A stretch of DNA of 64,000 bases from Escherichia phage vB_EcoM_D4 (PP886228); one strand, 5' to 3'. Shown: positions 9,643 through 56,660, counted from the first letter of the stretch. Translations and numbers: made by a program. The notes: generated by a model from the letters alone, not told the origin.

Positions 9643-10497
9643 ATGTTTGAAAAGATTGATAGTGTTTATTACAAAACACTTGATGAAAGGACTGTAACAC
9701 AGTTTAAAGATAAATTTATCTATACAAGTATCTTGAAAGCAATCACTGATGAGTTACAAACTCTAGAGGATGTTTGCTGGCAGATGCACACAGAGAGAAA
9801 TATCAGGACGTCAGTAGGACAACAACTGGATAATATTGGCTCACTGATTAAAGTTCCTAGACCTTTAGGTGCAGATGATGAAACATATAGAGCTATGCTT
9901 TATATCCAAATCTTCCTAAGACGCTCTGACACCACCCCAACATTCTTGCAAAAAGCAATTATGACACTATATGGTGCAACTTTCTCTCAGATTTTTGAGC
10001 ATATTACTCCTAAGACTGGTGGTATCGTTATCCGTATCAACACTAGGAAAAGCGTTCTAGATGCTGCATATACACTGTCAAAGATTTCTGCAACAACTAC
10101 TGGCTCCGCTGTTATCTTAAGAGATGTTACTTTAAAAGGAACTGCTTGGACTCCTGTAGAGGTTGCTGATTCATCACTTGCTATTGTTGATGATAAAGAG
10201 AACTGGTTTGTAACTGACGCTAACAGAGGTCTTGTCACAAATAACACTGGTGGCTCTCTGGAGTCCAACCTAGTAGGGAGCCTTGCAGATGCTGGTGTTA
10301 TTGATGGTTACTTTAAGGTTGACAGAACAGCAAACTCACAGAGTGATGATTATATGACTGTAGATAGGTCTAATAACAGTGGATATTTCATCGTTGGTAA
10401 AGAAGCTATCGCAGGTGGTGCATACGGAATCATGGCTGAGGTTGCACAAATTGTCAAAGGCAGAAAAGATAAATCACAACAAGAAGGAAATTCTTAA
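9643..10497 (+). CDS. baseplate/tail-fibre-associated protein (gpI-like)
   Basis: 284-aa ORF after J-like gene; position only. Confidence 0.35.
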
Positions 10498-10799
10498 TGG
10501 CAGTTTTAAATTGGTCTACAAATGAAGTAGATACTGATGGTAACCAGTTAAAAGTTTTACCACCACCGGAAGTTCAAGAGACAGGTCTTTTAAAGGGTGA
10601 ACCTATGGGTAGACAGTGGTTCAACTATATTATCAACTACCTGCTTAATAAAGTAAACGGCACTGTTGGTGAAGTTCGCTCATATGCAACTGAGCAACCA
10701 GATTTAGTGGCTAATGGCTGGAATCTGATTAAGTCTGAGACAGGGACTGCATCAACAAGTACAAGAAACCTTTACACATATGAATATGTAGGAGCTTAA
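10497..10799 (+). CDS. tail fibre-associated small protein
   Basis: 100-aa ORF coupled upstream of fibre gene. Confidence 0.3.
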
Positions 10800-10801
10800 T
10801 A

Positions 10802-11977
10802 ATGGCAGTAGGTGAAATTCAAATTAGTGCCTTGCCACAAGCGGCCTTACCAGTTGATTTAAGTGATATCTTCCATCTCAAGCAAGGTGTTGAGGATAAA
10901 AGATGTACGCTTGAACAGTTGTTAGCACCTCACGCATCTCTGAGGAATAACCCTCATGGTGTAACTAAATCACAAGTTGGTCTTGATAATGTTATTAACT
11001 CTCTTCAATTAGTTGCAGCTAATAACTTGTCAGATATTGTAAGTGTTGCTGAGGCAAGAGCAAATCTACAAATTATGTCGTCAGAGGAAGTGAATAACTT
11101 AATTCAGCAACATATTGACGACAAAAGTAACCCACACAATACAACGAAAGCACAGGTTGGTTTAAGTAATGTTCAGAACTGGACAACATCTAATCTGTAC
11201 AATGAAGATGCTGATAAGTATGCTACCGCGAAAGCAGTTAATAATTTATATAAAGCTATCCAAGCGTCATATCCAGTAGGGACTATTCATCTATCTGTTA
11301 ACTCTGCTAACCCATCCACTTACTTGCTTTGTGGAGGTACTTGGGAGTTAGTTTCTAAAGGTAGAGCATTAGTTGGTTATGATACAGATTCTAGACCTGT
11401 TGGTTCAACGTTTGGTTCTCAGACTGTAGCATTAACAAATAATAATTTACCAGCACATACTCACTCTATCTATCTAACAGGTGGTGGTCATACACACTCT
11501 GCAAGTGTATCTATCTCTAGTTTTGATTATGGTTCAAAAAGTACATCAACTTTTGATTACGGTACAAAAACGACTAATAGTGCTGGTGCTCACACTCACA
11601 CGTTTAGTGGCACAACAAGTAATGCTGGTAACCACAACCATAGAGTCCCTATGAGGGGTAATGATAGGGGTGGCACAAACGCTATTACTGCATCTGCTGA
11701 TGCTGGTGTTGGTAATGCTATGTATACTGATTTAGCTGGTGCTCACACCCATAGCTTCTCAGGTACAACTGCATCATCTGGTGCTCATAGCCATACTGTC
11801 GCAATTGGTGCTCACAGCCACACTGTTAATATTGGTTCGCACAGTCATACAGGCACTGTTACTGTTTCTAGCTCTGAGCATACACACTCAGGGACATCTG
11901 GTTCTGTTGGTGGTGGTCAAGCTTTCAGTGTTGAGCAGCCATCTTTTGTAGTGTATGTGTGGCAGAGAACAGCTTAA
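10802..11977 (+). CDS. tail fibre protein with His-rich C-terminal tip
   Basis: Two NPH..TK.QVGL.NV repeats; C-terminal array of HTHS/HSHT motifs; C-terminus related to that of the next gene. Confidence 0.6.
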   Translation: MAVGEIQISALPQAALPVDLSDIFHLKQGVEDKRCTLEQLLAPHASLRNNPHGVTKSQVGLDNVINSLQLVAANNLSDIVSVAEARANLQIMSSEEVNNLIQQHIDDKSNPHNTTKAQVGLSNVQNWTTSNLYNEDADKYATAKAVNNLYKAIQASYPVGTIHLSVNSANPSTYLLCGGTWELVSKGRALVGYDTDSRPVGSTFGSQTVALTNNNLPAHTHSIYLTGGGHTHSASVSISSFDYGSKSTSTFDYGTKTTNSAGAHTHTFSGTTSNAGNHNHRVPMRGNDRGGTNAITASADAGVGNAMYTDLAGAHTHSFSGTTASSGAHSHTVAIGAHSHTVNIGSHSHTGTVTVSSSEHTHSGTSGSVGGGQAFSVEQPSFVVYVWQRTA

Positions 11978-44289: not shown

Positions 44290-45181
44290 GAGAGAAACTA
44301 TGAAAACATCTATCCGTGTTACAGTTCATTCACCGACTAAAGGGACTCATGAAGAAGAGTTTAACATCATTCAATTCCCTTCTGGTGAGATTGGTGGACA
44401 CTTTTCACAAGAGCTTGTTGATTTTACTGCTTATGCAGCATCATCTATCAACAATGTGATTATGATTGTGAAAGGTTATGATAAGGACACATTGTTTGCT
44501 GTGGCACTTGCTAAAGAAGCAATTGATGATTTAGTCCCTCATGACTATGCCTTAAAGACTGTCATTTTTTACTACTTACCAAATGCACGATATGACCGTC
44601 ACATGTTTAAAGGTGATGCAGCAGCTTTAAAGGTTTTTGCTAAACAGGTCAATGCAATGGGGTTTGGTGCAGTCTGTGCAGTTGACCCTCACAGTTATGT
44701 ACCAGATAACCTGTTTAACTGCTTCCAGAGTATTCCTCAAAAGGAAATTGCAGTCCACTATGCAAATGACCCACTGGTTGATTACTTAGTAGCCCCAGAT
44801 GCAGGTGCTGCTAAGAAGATTGCAGAGACTGCTAAAGAGGTGGATAAGCCATACATCACAATGTCTAAAGTGCGTAACCTTAAAACTGGTGAAATTACTG
44901 GTATGCGAATCCTTGATGATGTTGATTTGACAGATAAAACCGTCATGATTCTGGATGATATTTGTGATGGAGGACGAACCTTCATAGAAGCAGCTAAACA
45001 TCTTCGTGAAGCAGGTGCAAAACGTGTGGAACTCTATGTAACACATGGTATCTTCTCTAAAGGTGTTGAAAACTTACTTGACAATGGTATTGACCACATC
45101 TACACTACAAACTCTTTAGGGGAAGCTAAAGACCGTGGCTTAACACATTATGGTCAAGTTACTGTAGCAAATTTGGATTAG
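44282..45181 (+). CDS. ribose-phosphate pyrophosphokinase-like protein (PRPP synthetase family)
   Basis: PRPP-binding loop VMILDDICDGGRT and overall about 300 aa Prs-like layout. Confidence 0.65.
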   Translation: MTERETMKTSIRVTVHSPTKGTHEEEFNIIQFPSGEIGGHFSQELVDFTAYAASSINNVIMIVKGYDKDTLFAVALAKEAIDDLVPHDYALKTVIFYYLPNARYDRHMFKGDAAALKVFAKQVNAMGFGAVCAVDPHSYVPDNLFNCFQSIPQKEIAVHYANDPLVDYLVAPDAGAAKKIAETAKEVDKPYITMSKVRNLKTGEITGMRILDDVDLTDKTVMILDDICDGGRTFIEAAKHLREAGAKRVELYVTHGIFSKGVENLLDNGIDHIYTTNSLGEAKDRGLTHYGQVTVANLD

Positions 45182-45189
45182 GTATTAAA

Positions 45190-45681
45190 ATGGATAAGGG
45201 TTACTTCGAAAAATACCTAATATACGAACCGGAGACAGGTTTACTAATTTGGAAAGTAACCCTTTGCAATACCGCTATTGCTGGTAATGTTGCTGGCACA
45301 AGGTCTAAGAAGGGTTATATCCAAGTCCAGATAAATAAGAAGAGGTACTATGCACATAATATTGCATGGATTATGTCTGGAGGTGAGATACCAAGTGGAT
45401 ATGAGATAGACCACATAGACCTTGATAAATCTAATAATAAGTTGGAGAATTTAAGACTTAGCACAAAGTCACAAAATCAGAGGAATAGGGGTATATACAA
45501 GAATAATAAAACTGGTGTGAAGGGTGTAAGTTTTTGTAAACAAACAGGTCTTTACAAAGCAAGAGTCATGCTTTACCATAAAGAATACTTTTGTGGAAGA
45601 TTTAAAACGGTAGAAGAAGCAAAAGAAGCTGTAATTAAAAAGCGAATAGAACTTCATGGTGAGTTTGCAAGACATAACTAA
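45190..45681 (+). mobile_element. free-standing HNH homing endonuclease with AP2 domain
   Basis: IDHIDLDKSNNKLENLRL...QNQRN HNH_3 motif plus C-terminal TGVKGVSF...YKARV AP2-like segment; inserted between two metabolically linked genes. Confidence 0.6.
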
Positions 45682-45695
45682 GAGAGAGATAAAAT

Positions 45696-47477
45696 ATGAG
45701 TAAGTCACTTTACGCAGTACCAGCAGGTCTTAATGCAGATGCTTACAAGGCATCACATATATATCAGTATCCAGATGCTACGCAATATCTTATGTTGAAC
45801 CTGACACCACGTAGTGACAAATGGTTTAACAGCCCCTTAGCAATTGATGGTGTAGTTGCTTTTGGTATTCAACGTTTCGTTAAAGATTACTTGATAGACC
45901 ATTGGAATGCCACCTTCTTTGAACGTGATAAAAAAGAAGCAATTGACGAAATCTTAGAAGTCATGAACGGTGTTCTGGGTAAAGATGCTATTGGTCGAGA
46001 ACATTGGGAAGCACTCCACGATTTAGGTTATCTACCAGTTGAAGTATACGCTGTAGAAGAAGGCACAGTTGTTCCTATGCGTGTACCAATGATTGTCTTC
46101 CAGAACACTGTTTCAGGTTTCCATTGGGTAGCTGGGTATCTGGAAGATGCTTTCTCTGCTGAGATTTGGAAGGCTTGTACCATTGCAACTATTGCATTGC
46201 ACTATAAACGTATCTGTAAGAAGTGGTCTGACCTTACTTGTGATAACGACTTACATTTGCCTTATCAGTGCCATGACTTTGCTATGCGTGGTATGTCTGG
46301 CTTTACTGATGACGCATTTAACGCTGTAGGTCACTTAACCAGCTTTAAAGGAACTGACAGCTTCCCTGCTGTGTATACAGCTAAACGCATCTATGGACAG
46401 TCCTACCCAATCTCTGATATTGGTAGTTCTGTACCAGCCACTGAACACTCTGTAATGTGTGCAAACATTGCTTGGGAAGGTGGTAATGAGTTGATTGAAG
46501 AAGAAAGACGCTTTAAAGGTGAGTTACAAACCTTCCGTCGTTTCTTAACAGAAACTTACCCAACTGGCATTGCAAGTGTTGTTTCAGATACTTATAACTT
46601 CTGGAGAACTGTATCAGTTATATTACCAGAACTTCGTAAAGAGATTATGGAACGTGATGGCAAACTGGTAATTCGTCCTGACTCTGGAGACCCTGTACAT
46701 ATTGTCACAGGCTATAAAGCAATCCACTTAGAGTGTGCTAAAAAGGCTTATTACGAACACCTAAGCAAGCTGGAAGCCAGCGACACAATGTTGAATGCTG
46801 TTCTGAACATGAAGCTTGAAAACATCAATTATGGTATTGCTGGATGGCTATTGTCAGAAGGCTACGAAATGGTTGTTGACAGAGAAGACTTTGAAGTTGC
46901 TGATACAGTGCTGTTGAAAAATGCTTATATGGTTGGTTCTGCAAACGTTGTAACACGTCCTGTAGCGGAGATTGATGGAGCTATCAAGACACTGTATAAC
47001 ATCTTTGGAGGAACTATCAACTCTAAAGGTTTTAAAGTACTGGATGAGCATATCGGACTGATTTATGGCGACTCTATCACGTTGGAACGTGCAAACGAAA
47101 TACTGAAGCGTTTGTATGAAATGGGTTTTGCAAGCTCTAACGTAGTGTTTGGTGTAGGTTCTTATACTTACCAGTACATGACTCGTGATACCTTTGCATT
47201 TGCTGTCAAAGCAACTCTTGCAAGCATTGGTGGTAAAGAGATTATGCTTGCAAAAGACCCTAAAACAGATAGCGGTGTTAAGAAGTCTGCTTTTGGTGGT
47301 GTAGCACCTATGTGGGATGGTGATAATCTGAAAGCTGTAGATGGCTATGGATTCCAGAGCTTTGCAGATGTGCTAGAGCATCCAGCTTGTGCTTTACGTT
47401 TAGTCTTTAGCGACTCTGAGCAGTTCGGTTACACAACTCTTGGTGATATTCGAAATAATATTGACAAGCAGCTTTAA
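45696..47477 (+). CDS. nicotinamide phosphoribosyltransferase-like protein (NAMPT family)
   Basis: 593 aa, N-terminus ...DAYKASHIYQYP... typical of NAMPT/NadV family. Confidence 0.7.
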   Translation: MSKSLYAVPAGLNADAYKASHIYQYPDATQYLMLNLTPRSDKWFNSPLAIDGVVAFGIQRFVKDYLIDHWNATFFERDKKEAIDEILEVMNGVLGKDAIGREHWEALHDLGYLPVEVYAVEEGTVVPMRVPMIVFQNTVSGFHWVAGYLEDAFSAEIWKACTIATIALHYKRICKKWSDLTCDNDLHLPYQCHDFAMRGMSGFTDDAFNAVGHLTSFKGTDSFPAVYTAKRIYGQSYPISDIGSSVPATEHSVMCANIAWEGGNELIEEERRFKGELQTFRRFLTETYPTGIASVVSDTYNFWRTVSVILPELRKEIMERDGKLVIRPDSGDPVHIVTGYKAIHLECAKKAYYEHLSKLEASDTMLNAVLNMKLENINYGIAGWLLSEGYEMVVDREDFEVADTVLLKNAYMVGSANVVTRPVAEIDGAIKTLYNIFGGTINSKGFKVLDEHIGLIYGDSITLERANEILKRLYEMGFASSNVVFGVGSYTYQYMTRDTFAFAVKATLASIGGKEIMLAKDPKTDSGVKKSAFGGVAPMWDGDNLKAVDGYGFQSFADVLEHPACALRLVFSDSEQFGYTTLGDIRNNIDKQL

Positions 47478-55213: not shown

Positions 55214-55421
55214 AAAGACCCGTAAGATTGTACGTTCAGCAGTATTCAAAGGGAGACATGAAGTCGTCCCGTTTGCAGGAGAAGATGTGTTAACTTACAA
55301 GAAGGTGATGAAACGTGAGTCCAGTAACCATTTCCGTGACTTCTTCTCTGAACCATTAGAAGATTTTAAAAGTCGTTGTGGTAAAGGTATCATCACTCAA
55401 GAGGTAATTATTCATGGCTGA
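55188..55421 (+). CDS. hypothetical protein
   Basis: 77-aa ORF. Confidence 0.3.
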   Translation: MKVILARDKKTRKIVRSAVFKGRHEVVPFAGEDVLTYKKVMKRESSNHFRDFFSEPLEDFKSRCGKGIITQEVIIHG

Positions 55422-55614
55422 CTTCTGCAAAGACTGCTCTATCGAAATGTTCGGACGTGATACAGGTGACTTAAAAGGTCTTATCACTGAAGATGACTTT
55501 AAAGCTGGCTATGCAATGCCAGTAATATGTGAAGGTTGTGGATGTATCTGGGTAGACCATGAAGGACAACGTGTAAAACCTTCAGAAGATAAAGAATCTT
55601 GGGAGAGATGCTAA
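55414..55614 (+). CDS. small Cys-rich protein
   Basis: CKDCS...CEGCGC. Confidence 0.3.
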   Translation: MADFCKDCSIEMFGRDTGDLKGLITEDDFKAGYAMPVICEGCGCIWVDHEGQRVKPSEDKESWERC

Positions 55615-56400
55615 ATGGGTATTGTAAAAATCATCAATGGGGATATCTTCTCCGCATTTGATAAAGGTAAGTTTGATATCATTGGTCACGGTTGCAACTG
55701 TATGAACTTAATGGGTGCAGGTATCGCTGCCAAGATTTCTAAACTTTACCCAAAAGCATATGAGACCGATACAGAAGTTTATCTGTATGCAGGTGGTATA
55801 GGCCACAAACCCTGTGAAAATTTACTAGGTAATTTCTCTGTAGCACGTTTAGAACAAGGCCGTATAGCTAACCTTTACACTCAGCTTAAGACTGGTAAAG
55901 ATGCCCGATACAGTGCTTTAGAGTCATCTTTGAAACAGCTTAACAGATACTGTGAAGTCAATCAGTTGAAGAAAGTTGGGTTACCTATGATTGGTGCAGG
56001 TATCGGTGGACTAGACCCTCAAGCCGTCGCAGTTATCATTAATCAGGTGATGAAGAGTGTAGATGTGTATCTGTATGTCTACGAAGGCGAGATGTACCAC
56101 AAGTTACGCTCAGGTTGGAAGAACTACTGTGAACCAGAATACTTTGCAGGTGTAGTAATGTTCACAGATGATACAGTTACCCTCTTCAGACGAAGAAAAG
56201 GTAAGATACATCAAAGTAACCCTCCGGTTGAGAAGATGTCTCTAAGTAACGCTCTAGTTACCCACCTGTCGAAGAGCAATCACAGAATTGCAGTAACATT
56301 TGGCAGTGATGCAGATACATATATCTATGCAAGAACTGATGAGGATGTTGAGGAAATTTTCTCTTCACCGGAAGTTACCTTCTTAGACGCAAAGAACTAA
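55615..56400 (+). CDS. macro-domain (ADP-ribose binding/hydrolysing) protein
   Basis: N-terminus IINGDIFSAF...DIIGHGCNCMNLMGAGIAAKI matches macro-domain NGDIT / G-rich loop layout. Confidence 0.5.
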   Translation: MGIVKIINGDIFSAFDKGKFDIIGHGCNCMNLMGAGIAAKISKLYPKAYETDTEVYLYAGGIGHKPCENLLGNFSVARLEQGRIANLYTQLKTGKDARYSALESSLKQLNRYCEVNQLKKVGLPMIGAGIGGLDPQAVAVIINQVMKSVDVYLYVYEGEMYHKLRSGWKNYCEPEYFAGVVMFTDDTVTLFRRRKGKIHQSNPPVEKMSLSNALVTHLSKSNHRIAVTFGSDADTYIYARTDEDVEEIFSSPEVTFLDAKN

Positions 56401-56469
56401 GAAACTCTGTAGAATATTCACAATAGACTAAGCCTTTCTTATCTGGTAAATTTTTCAGGTAAGGAGGGC

Positions 56470-56660
56470 TTTTTCATTTCAGGATTGTGCAGGCAGAGTT
56501 CTGTAGAGAAATCTGTAGAGAAAATTTTGAACTCCAAAGAGAAAATTCATTTTCAAACTGTGCAGGTAATCTCCAAAGAGCTTTTTCATTTTCAAAACGT
56601 GCAGACCCCGCTCAGGTCGGGCAAGAAAAATCATTTTAGAATTGTGCAGGTAGGTGGGTG
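56470..56660 (+). repeat. direct repeat array of about 40-45 bp units ending in GTGCAGG
   Basis: ttcatttcaggattgtgcagg, ttcattttcaaactgtgcagg, ttcattttcaaaacgtgcaga, tcattttagaattgtgcagg, plus ctccaaagag x2 and tctgtagagaaa x2. Confidence 0.6.

Follow-up and report, generated by a model that had tools for sequence, protein, structure and literature searches.

A two-domain macro protein of Felixounaviruses, encoded away from the NARP1 operon, probably helps the phage to undo NAD-based bacterial immunity

The NAD+ reconstitution pathway NARP1, which consists of the enzymes Adps and Namat, was discovered in the g79/g80 genes of phage Bas63. One of its intermediates, ADPR-PP, decays spontaneously to ADPR cyclic phosphate, and NARP1 operons are also known to recruit enzymes that turn immune signals into ADP-ribose (ADPR), as in the RyDEP case. 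The RES-domain defence proteins (aRES) convert NAD+ into nicotinamide and ADPR-1''-phosphate (ADPR-1''P), a compound that NARP1 alone cannot use (bioRxiv 10.64898/2026.01.28.702374). About 15% of the NARP1 operons contain in addition a Poa1p-like macro protein named Adpp. The Adpp of Vibrio phage Gary (KNV71_gp137) transforms ADPR-1''P into ADPR in vitro, as determined by LC-MS, its three-gene operon overcomes aRES, and the mutations H24A and N27A abolished the anti-aRES activity; in the same preprint, yeast Poa1p is cited as catalyzing the dephosphorylation of ADPR-1''P (bioRxiv 10.64898/2026.01.28.702374). The extended pathway, NARP1-AP, is operationally defined by an Adpp located within two genes of Adps or Namat, and phages of Escherichia or Salmonella are missing from the Adpp Table S1, a survey that covered two genes on either side of NARP1 (bioRxiv 10.64898/2026.01.28.702374).

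A second line of work concerns the Poa1p-like protein Tk.4 of phage T4. A tk.4 knockout makes T4 sensitive to DarTG2, and the gene was named adfM in the HIDEN-SEQ preprint; this evidence is a genetic phenotype, from which the de-ADP-ribosylation of DNA was inferred without biochemistry (bioRxiv 10.1101/2025.11.20.689424). The name AdfM has also been given to an unrelated, DarG-like phage macro protein, gp104 of PhiKZ, which removes DarT2 adducts from DNA in vitro, and transferring the annotation between both proteins would be misleading. More generally, ADPr signals and toxins of low molecular weight have been put forward as targets of the macro domains of phages, and the macro superfamily includes protein and RNA de-ADP-ribosylases as well as pure readers.

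The window, i.e., the whole stretch of 64,000 nucleotides that was analysed, belongs to a Felixounavirus (Felix-O1-type phage): it matches Escherichia phage vB_EcoM_I14.1 (PP892526.1) at 100% identity and many Felixounavirus isolates at 93-97%. The GenBank taxonomy of PP892526.1 reads Demerecviridae; Tequintavirus, and this record is probably mislabelled, since both by sequence and by gene order the phage is a Felixounavirus (Ounavirinae). The features discussed here are collected in Table 1.

Table 1. Features of the macro+CTD gene and of its surroundings in the window.
Feature	Position	Strand	Evidence or remark
Adps, Prs-like ADP-ribose pyrophosphokinase, first NARP1 enzyme	44300..45181	+	79% to Bas63 gp79; Pfam and NCBIfam Prs-like
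Namat, NAMPT-like nicotinamide ADP-ribose transferase, second NARP1 enzyme	45696..47477	+	97% to Bas63 gp80
Upstream abutting ORF, 66 aa, CxxC...CxxC zinc-ribbon-like, PHROG_2210	55414..55614	+	Abuts the macro start codon
Complete ORF, 261 aa plus stop	55615..56400	+	Macro+CTD two-domain protein, Bas63 gp95 orthologue
Macro domain, aa 1-157, Poa1p-like	55615..56085	+	PF01661; AF2 model; Foldseek TARG1/Poa1p/DarG
His25-Gly-Cys-Asn28 motif	55687..55698	+	Equivalent to H24 and N27 of Gary Adpp by alignment
Gln90 codon at the position of the TARG1 catalytic Lys (K84)	55882..55884	+	HMMER alignment to TARG1; multiple alignment
Linker helix, aa 158-167	56086..56115	+	AF2 secondary structure
C-terminal beta-rich domain (CTD), aa 168-261, lineage-specific	56116..56397	+	No relatives found outside the macro+CTD family
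Terminator-like hairpin and T-run	56430..56481 (hairpin 56430-56471)	+	Directly 3' of the macro+CTD gene

The start codon of the macro+CTD gene directly abuts the TAA of the preceding ORF, with a GGAG sequence located 9 nt 5' of the ATG. Its product shares 96% identity with gp95 ('putative phosphatase') of Bas63/JohannRWettstein and 100% with CDS0131 ('phosphatase') of PP892526.1. This gene is already annotated across hundreds of phage genomes, with public annotations such as 'phosphatase', 'putative macro domain protein', 'O-acetyl-ADP-ribose deacetylase', and 'hypothetical protein'. By tblastn, the N-terminal ~155 aa were matched in 2,803 phage records, including the T4-like Tk.4 'phosphatase' genes, of which only 257 were covered over the full length, all of them Felix-O1-like phages and their relatives.

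The N-terminal ~157 aa of the protein are a genuine macro domain. The Pfam profile PF01661 matches aa 25-141 along positions 2-117 of its 118 with 33.6 bits (gathering cut-off 22; E=4.1e-8), PHROG_335 ('phosphatase') matches the full length with E=4.5e-113, and a PDB sequence search retrieved TARG1/OARD1, TTHA0132, DarG macrodomains, the coronavirus Mac1, and yeast Poa1p. The AlphaFold2 (AF2) model of the protein, built from 31 homologues, reached a pLDDT of 90.6 and a pTM of 0.88, and it predicts a three-layer alpha/beta/alpha macro fold in the N-terminal domain. When this model was used in Foldseek, TARG1 was the top match (E=4.6e-11, TM on target 0.83-0.87), and Poa1p (E=2.7e-10, TM on target 0.77) and the DarG macrodomains (8e-10) were both found with a probability of 1.00. 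The original prediction had located the ORF and an N-terminal macro signature from the sequence and had proposed structure prediction as a check: coordinates, strand, and motifs (NGDIF at aa 8-12 and GHGCNCMNLMGAGIA at aa 24-38) are as described, and Pfam, AF2, and Foldseek all agree with the macro fold.

The residues of the putative active site were analysed in an alignment of 31 relatives (A1). The protein contains two Gly-rich phosphate-binding loops, MGAGIA (aa 33-38) and IGAGIGG (aa 126-132), in which G36, G127, and G129 are invariant and G34 is nearly so. H25 and N28, whose counterparts are essential in Adpp, are invariant in 31/31 aligned relatives. The catalytic lysine that follows the central strand in DarG and TARG1 is absent from the window protein: TARG1 K84 corresponds to Q90, which is invariant in A1, and TARG1 D125 corresponds to G131. 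PhiKZ gp104 has a Lys ('PTK') at the position of Q90, and Tk.4 has a Gln there.

These residues bear on the possibility that the protein removes ADP-ribose from proteins or RNA, e.g., in a CmdT-type mRNA modification or after the action of a host ART, or that it works as a non-catalytic ADP-ribose binder or sponge. The macro superfamily holds precedents for each of these roles, and the closest solved structure, TARG1, is a protein and nucleic-acid ADP-ribosyl hydrolase. However, both K84 and D125 of TARG1 are replaced, the invariant H25/N28 pair argues for a Poa1p/Adpp-type catalysis over mere binding, and nothing in the gene context points to an ART partner, so that we consider this reading very improbable.

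Among the characterized phage macro proteins, the best-scoring homologue is Tk.4 (35% identity, 82 bits, E=3e-24 over aa 3-157), ahead of Gary Adpp (27% identity, 53 bits), and Tk.4 and Adpp share 35% identity with each other. Over 148 trimmed columns, the window macro domain shares 36% identity with the NARP1-embedded macro domains of phiPsa374 and VCM, 34% with that of PAK_P1, and 34% with Tk.4, i.e., it is as similar to the embedded domains as to Tk.4. In a neighbour-joining tree the macro+CTD proteins form one clade (97% bootstrap) that is joined with some macro-only metagenomic proteins (100%), and the nodes joining this clade to the Tk.4 or Adpp groups have a bootstrap of 7%, so that the tree does not decide between the two subfamilies. 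One related Poa1p-like macro domain, in the metagenomic protein P0025 (339 aa), occurs as a fusion with a cREC_REC 'cyclic-phosphate processing receiver' (PF20274), which hints at a role of some clade members in the chemistry of ADPR cyclic phosphate or ADPR-1''P.

The DarG HMM was the only PADLOC match to the window protein (48.7 bits); the same model gave 132.9 bits for PhiKZ gp104, 44.6 for Adpp, and 37.2 for Tk.4. This match is uninformative, because the Adpp phosphatase scores as well. With NCBIfam NF048014 (DarG), the window protein reached 48.8 bits against an equivalog cut-off of 250 bits, and only the macro half was matched by the DarG models. The window protein is thus a phage macro enzyme of the Poa1p-like kind rather than an equivalent of DarG, since H25 and N28 are kept, the lysine is replaced, and the DarG HMM scores are low.

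The comparison with Tk.4 raises the main alternative, a serious one although we hold it less likely than not, namely that the macro domain removes the ADP-ribose attached by DarT2 to ssDNA thymidines, restoring replication, and that the CTD helps to find DNA or DarT2. It agrees with the phenotype of the tk.4 knockout, with the exact conservation of the HGCNC and NLYTQ motifs in the best-scoring characterized homologue, with the DarG HMM match, and with the macro-then-CTD order, which mimics that of DarG. Nevertheless, the support from Tk.4 itself is genetic, the position that is Lys in TARG1 and in PhiKZ gp104 is Gln in both the window protein and Tk.4, the DarG score stays far from the cut-off and from that of the biochemically proven PhiKZ AdfM, and the Adpp phosphatase scores alike. 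The CTD argues in the same direction, as it does not align to the C-terminal half of DarG, lacks a structural match, and has a net charge among homologues that speaks against a conserved DNA-binding surface. It should be noticed that anti-DarTG2 and phosphatase roles are not mutually exclusive, because the bond that is broken lies at C1'' of the distal ribose in either reaction.

The C-terminal ~95 aa (~168-261) had originally been described as a region of about 100 aa without a recognizable fold. In the AF2 model, this region is predicted with good confidence to be a compact domain that is beta-rich, ends in a helix, and is linked to the macro domain through another short helix. A fold search in BFVD with the CTD matched only the orthologue of phage SUSP2. 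A profile built from 15 C-terminal domains and run against 1.84 billion representative proteins gave four matches below 1e-10, three of them macro+CTD proteins and the fourth, P0033 (114 aa), a fragment of one that begins inside the macro domain. The weaker matches, a retroelement polyprotein and PQQ beta-propeller repeats, were discarded as spurious. Thus, neither the sequence search in the 1.84 billion representatives nor the structure search in BFVD found a relative of the CTD outside the macro+CTD family, and a CTD standing alone or combined with other partners was rejected, since the profile search retrieved only macro+CTD proteins.

In every pairwise comparison, the conservation of the CTD is roughly half that of the macro domain (e.g., 24% versus 53% and 55% versus 79%), and the CTD evolves about twice as fast. 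Its net charge ranges among homologues from -5 to +4 and its pI from 4.6 to 9.6, which makes a nucleic-acid-binding domain unlikely. Given this fast divergence and the lack of charge conservation, our guess is that the CTD could be a fast-evolving protein-contact, targeting, or structural module, rather than a catalytic or nucleic-acid-binding one.

A run of small genes that all point in the same direction, found downstream of rIIA, rIIB, and the gene for a polynucleotide kinase (PNK), ends with the macro+CTD gene, and the hairpin and T-run that follow it are likely to mark the end of the transcription unit. Just past this terminator-like hairpin there are four direct repeats with the core TCATTTTCAAAnnGTGCAG and a spacing of 39-73 bp (56465-56649, intergenic in the window) that could be repeated regulatory or promoter elements; in PP892526.1, small ORFs have been annotated across this region. 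The zinc-ribbon-like ORF that abuts the macro+CTD gene is possibly translationally coupled to it. A comparable ORF with four Cys lies next to the distant homologue in the metagenomic locus L005 and is missing next to the one in L004, so that the zinc-ribbon-like ORF is at most a possible partner of the macro gene.

A Prs-like/NAMPT-like pair encoded upstream had been suggested as a possible partner of the macro protein. This pair is the already known NARP1, since both proteins are close to Bas63 gp79 and gp80 (Table 1), in which the pathway was discovered. The window Namat matches the Namat crystal structures 9W5W/9W5X with E=1e-128 and canonical NAMPT with ~1e-41. The proposed cooperation is plausible, and Adps is the candidate consumer of the product of the macro enzyme, but the macro+CTD gene lies outside the NARP1 operon, on the same strand, 8.1 kb and 18 genes downstream of Namat, and hence outside the two-gene neighbourhood that defines NARP1-AP.

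The NARP1 genes of the window show some peculiarities. An HNH homing-endonuclease gene (HNH_3 and AP2-like; 45190-45681) splits the operon between Adps and Namat; neither Bas63 nor the metagenomic locus L006 has it at this position, and in L005 an HNH gene is found after Namat. The window Namat has 593 aa versus the 491-496 aa of the crystallized chains, and its HMMER match falls into two stretches, which implies, from the alignment, an insertion of ~90 aa around residues 343-428 that is conserved in Bas63 and in L004-L006. The differences between Adps and Bas63 gp79 are concentrated in the N-terminal ~180 aa, next to a nearly identical Namat, suggesting that mosaic exchange also takes place within NARP1.

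Macro genes do occur inside NARP1 operons of other phages: in Vibrio phage K460 the macro gene is located between Adps and Namat, in addition to the roughly 15% of NARP1 phages mentioned above. In three metagenomic lineages whose macro+CTD proteins are 35-41% identical to that of the window, the order Namat, rIIA, rIIB, several small genes, and macro+CTD is kept. All that this conserved order shows is that the genes are stably inherited together within the virus family. For the macro-only relatives that are nearest (P0020, P0024, and P0026), no NARP1 was found within 10 kb, and an adjacency to NARP1 was accordingly rejected for them.

Taking these data together, the reading that we favour, to which we give somewhat less than an even chance, is that the macro+CTD protein acts in trans as a phosphatase of the Adpp type, turning ADPR-1''P into free ADPR from which the NARP1 of the phage regenerates NAD+, conferring resistance to RES-type defence in enterobacterial hosts. 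A Poa1p-like macrodomain hydrolase would be made early in infection and would cleave the C1'' substituent on the distal ribose of an immunity-derived ADP-ribose derivative, releasing ADP-ribose. The most likely substrate would be ADPR-1''-phosphate, the product of the phosphorolysis of NAD+ by aRES-type RES-domain proteins. The free ADPR would then be used for rebuilding NAD+ by Adps and subsequently by Namat, whose genes lie 8-11 kb upstream on the same strand, and the Felixounaviruses would thus have a 'split' NARP1-AP pathway.

Several observations point to this Adpp-like function. The dephosphorylation of ADPR-1''P is the only biochemically defined activity in the Poa1p-like clade, the two residues essential in Adpp are kept in the 31 relatives, and the similarity to the NARP1-embedded macro domains equals that to Tk.4. 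NARP1, which by itself is unable to use ADPR-1''P, is encoded in the same genome, and the enterobacterial hosts carry aRES, since it was cloned from E. coli, Klebsiella, and Enterobacter. The macro genes found inside NARP1 operons, the gene order kept in three lineages, and the cREC fusion of P0025 also agree with it. On the other side, the gene is 18 genes away from NARP1, beyond the Adpp neighbourhood, Escherichia and Salmonella phages are missing from the Adpp table, the tested Adpp is less similar to the window protein than Tk.4 is, and the deep nodes of the tree are weak. Moreover, macro-only relatives occur without a nearby NARP1, synteny inside a single virus family argues only weakly for a functional coupling, and the additional CTD is not explained. 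The function of the clade does not seem to be limited to feeding NARP1, because T4 has Tk.4 and we know of no NARP1 in T4.

Instead, the protein could hydrolyse or scavenge other soluble ADPR derivatives, such as O-acetyl-ADPR, the cADPR isomers or His-ADPR of Thoeris-type systems, the ADPR cyclic phosphate formed from ADPR-PP, or ADPR-1''P arising from RNA repair, and we consider this quite unlikely. The proposal that phage macro domains act on small ADPr signals and toxins, the RyDEP precedent, and the decay of ADPR-PP together with the cREC fusion of P0025 are consistent with it, as are the PNK gene located 2.3 kb upstream and the record that annotates the gene as an O-acetyl-ADP-ribose deacetylase. 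Yet this annotation is automatic, no member of the clade has been reported to cleave cADPR isomers or OAADPr, and opening a 1''-2'' cyclic phosphate would take more than a macro domain. To our knowledge, T4-type RNA repair does not need a 2'-phosphotransferase (KptA/Tpt1), the source of Appr>p. Returning to the Adpp-like phosphatase and its anti-DarTG2 alternative, the reversal of ADP-ribosylation-based immunity and the processing of ADP-ribose signals that were first suggested for this gene have experimental precedents in the homologues of the clade, i.e., Tk.4 with DarTG2 and Gary Adpp in a NARP1 operon, but they are weakened by the replacement of the DarG-type catalytic lysine by Q90 and by the location of the gene outside the NARP1 operon.

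The PhageMaP knockouts of Bas63 provide genetic data on the orthologous gene. In the sheets for the laboratory host and the defence panel, the fitness values of g95 are positive (~+0.6 to +1.1), those of terminase and portal being negative, and in the portion of PhageMaP that we consulted g79/g80 counter Sir2-HerA strongly, whereas g95 does not feature among the genes listed as counters. The positive fitness within these sheets indicates that g95 is accessory and is not needed for NARP1 to handle plain ADPR. Since Sir2-HerA yields plain ADPR, a dispensable g95 is what would be expected of an Adpp-like helper. Nevertheless, the defence systems in the consulted PhageMaP text and tables include neither DarTG nor aRES, and these data, as far as the consulted sheets go, fit both the Adpp-like and the anti-DarTG2 models and favour neither of them.

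The macro+CTD gene exists as two alleles. Over 11 kb of flanking sequence, the metagenomic locus L006 shares ~95% identity with the window, and the protein of the upstream ORF is 100% identical, but the identity collapses between ~55757, inside the gene, and ~56586 (the L006 counterpart is located at 10143-10934), and the macro+CTD proteins of both are only about 41-42% identical. This second allele was found at 96-100% identity in 13 cultured Felixounavirus records, e.g., the Salmonella phages BPS17L1 and Si3 and the Escherichia phages finno and ECML-1, and no intermediates between the alleles were found in the collection of cultured records. Even phages with similar names differ, as VpaE1_ev035 has the second allele and vB_EcoM-VpaE1 the window-type allele. 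The swap is a cassette-like replacement, which is common at anti-defence loci and is no proof by itself. It could reflect a more speculative scenario, improbable in our opinion, in which a DarG-like build has arisen from unrelated parts: the macro domain would erase the product of an NAD-consuming defence, the CTD would dock on an aRES/DarT-type enzyme or on Adps/Namat, and selection would keep two alleles to match the variants of the host defence.

The macro domain, its annotation, and the upstream NARP1 were already known, and we have found no description of the two-domain architecture with an orphan, fast-evolving CTD, of its dispersal from NARP1, or of the dimorphic alleles. The protein probably helps the phage to undo NAD-based bacterial immunity, its exact role being suggested by analogy with its homologues. 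This is relevant because Felixounaviruses, the group of the genetically tractable Bas63 in which NARP1 was discovered, are in wide use against E. coli and Salmonella for therapy and biocontrol. If the gp95-type proteins are Adpp-like, the extended NARP1 pathway would be present in these phages in a dispersed form, resistance to RES-type NAD+ phosphorolysis would be expected, and the searches based on operon proximity would have under-counted the pathway. If the protein reverses DarT2 instead, this would add to the evidence that lysine-less Poa1p-like macrodomains are able to de-ADP-ribosylate DNA.

Compared with the known systems, the window protein has the same ALC1/TARG1-like macro subfold as DarG, TARG1, and PhiKZ gp104, with TARG1 as the top PDB match, and it shares with DarG the arrangement of a macro domain followed by a C-terminal domain, but these enzymes have a catalytic Lys in place of Gln90, TARG1 has D125 in place of Gly131, and the DarT-binding C-terminal domain of DarG is unrelated to the window CTD. 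Yeast Poa1p (PDB 6LFQ/6LFR) is a fold match that shares the H-x-C-N-C motif and the G-x-G-I-A loop, but it is only ~27% identical, has a eukaryotic housekeeping role in tRNA splicing, and lacks a C-terminal domain. T4 Tk.4, with its identical HGCNC and NLYTQ motifs, is likewise annotated as a 'phosphatase' and is also an early accessory gene of a lytic myovirus, differing by its length of 155 aa without a C-terminal domain. Finally, Gary Adpp is a Poa1p-like phage macro protein with the equivalent pair H24/N27, the same Gly-rich loops, and a genome that likewise encodes Adps and Namat; its motifs read HQCNC and NVYGQ instead of HGCNC and NLYTQ, and it is a single domain of 158 aa encoded inside the operon, whereas the window protein has 261 aa, carries the CTD, and is encoded outside it.
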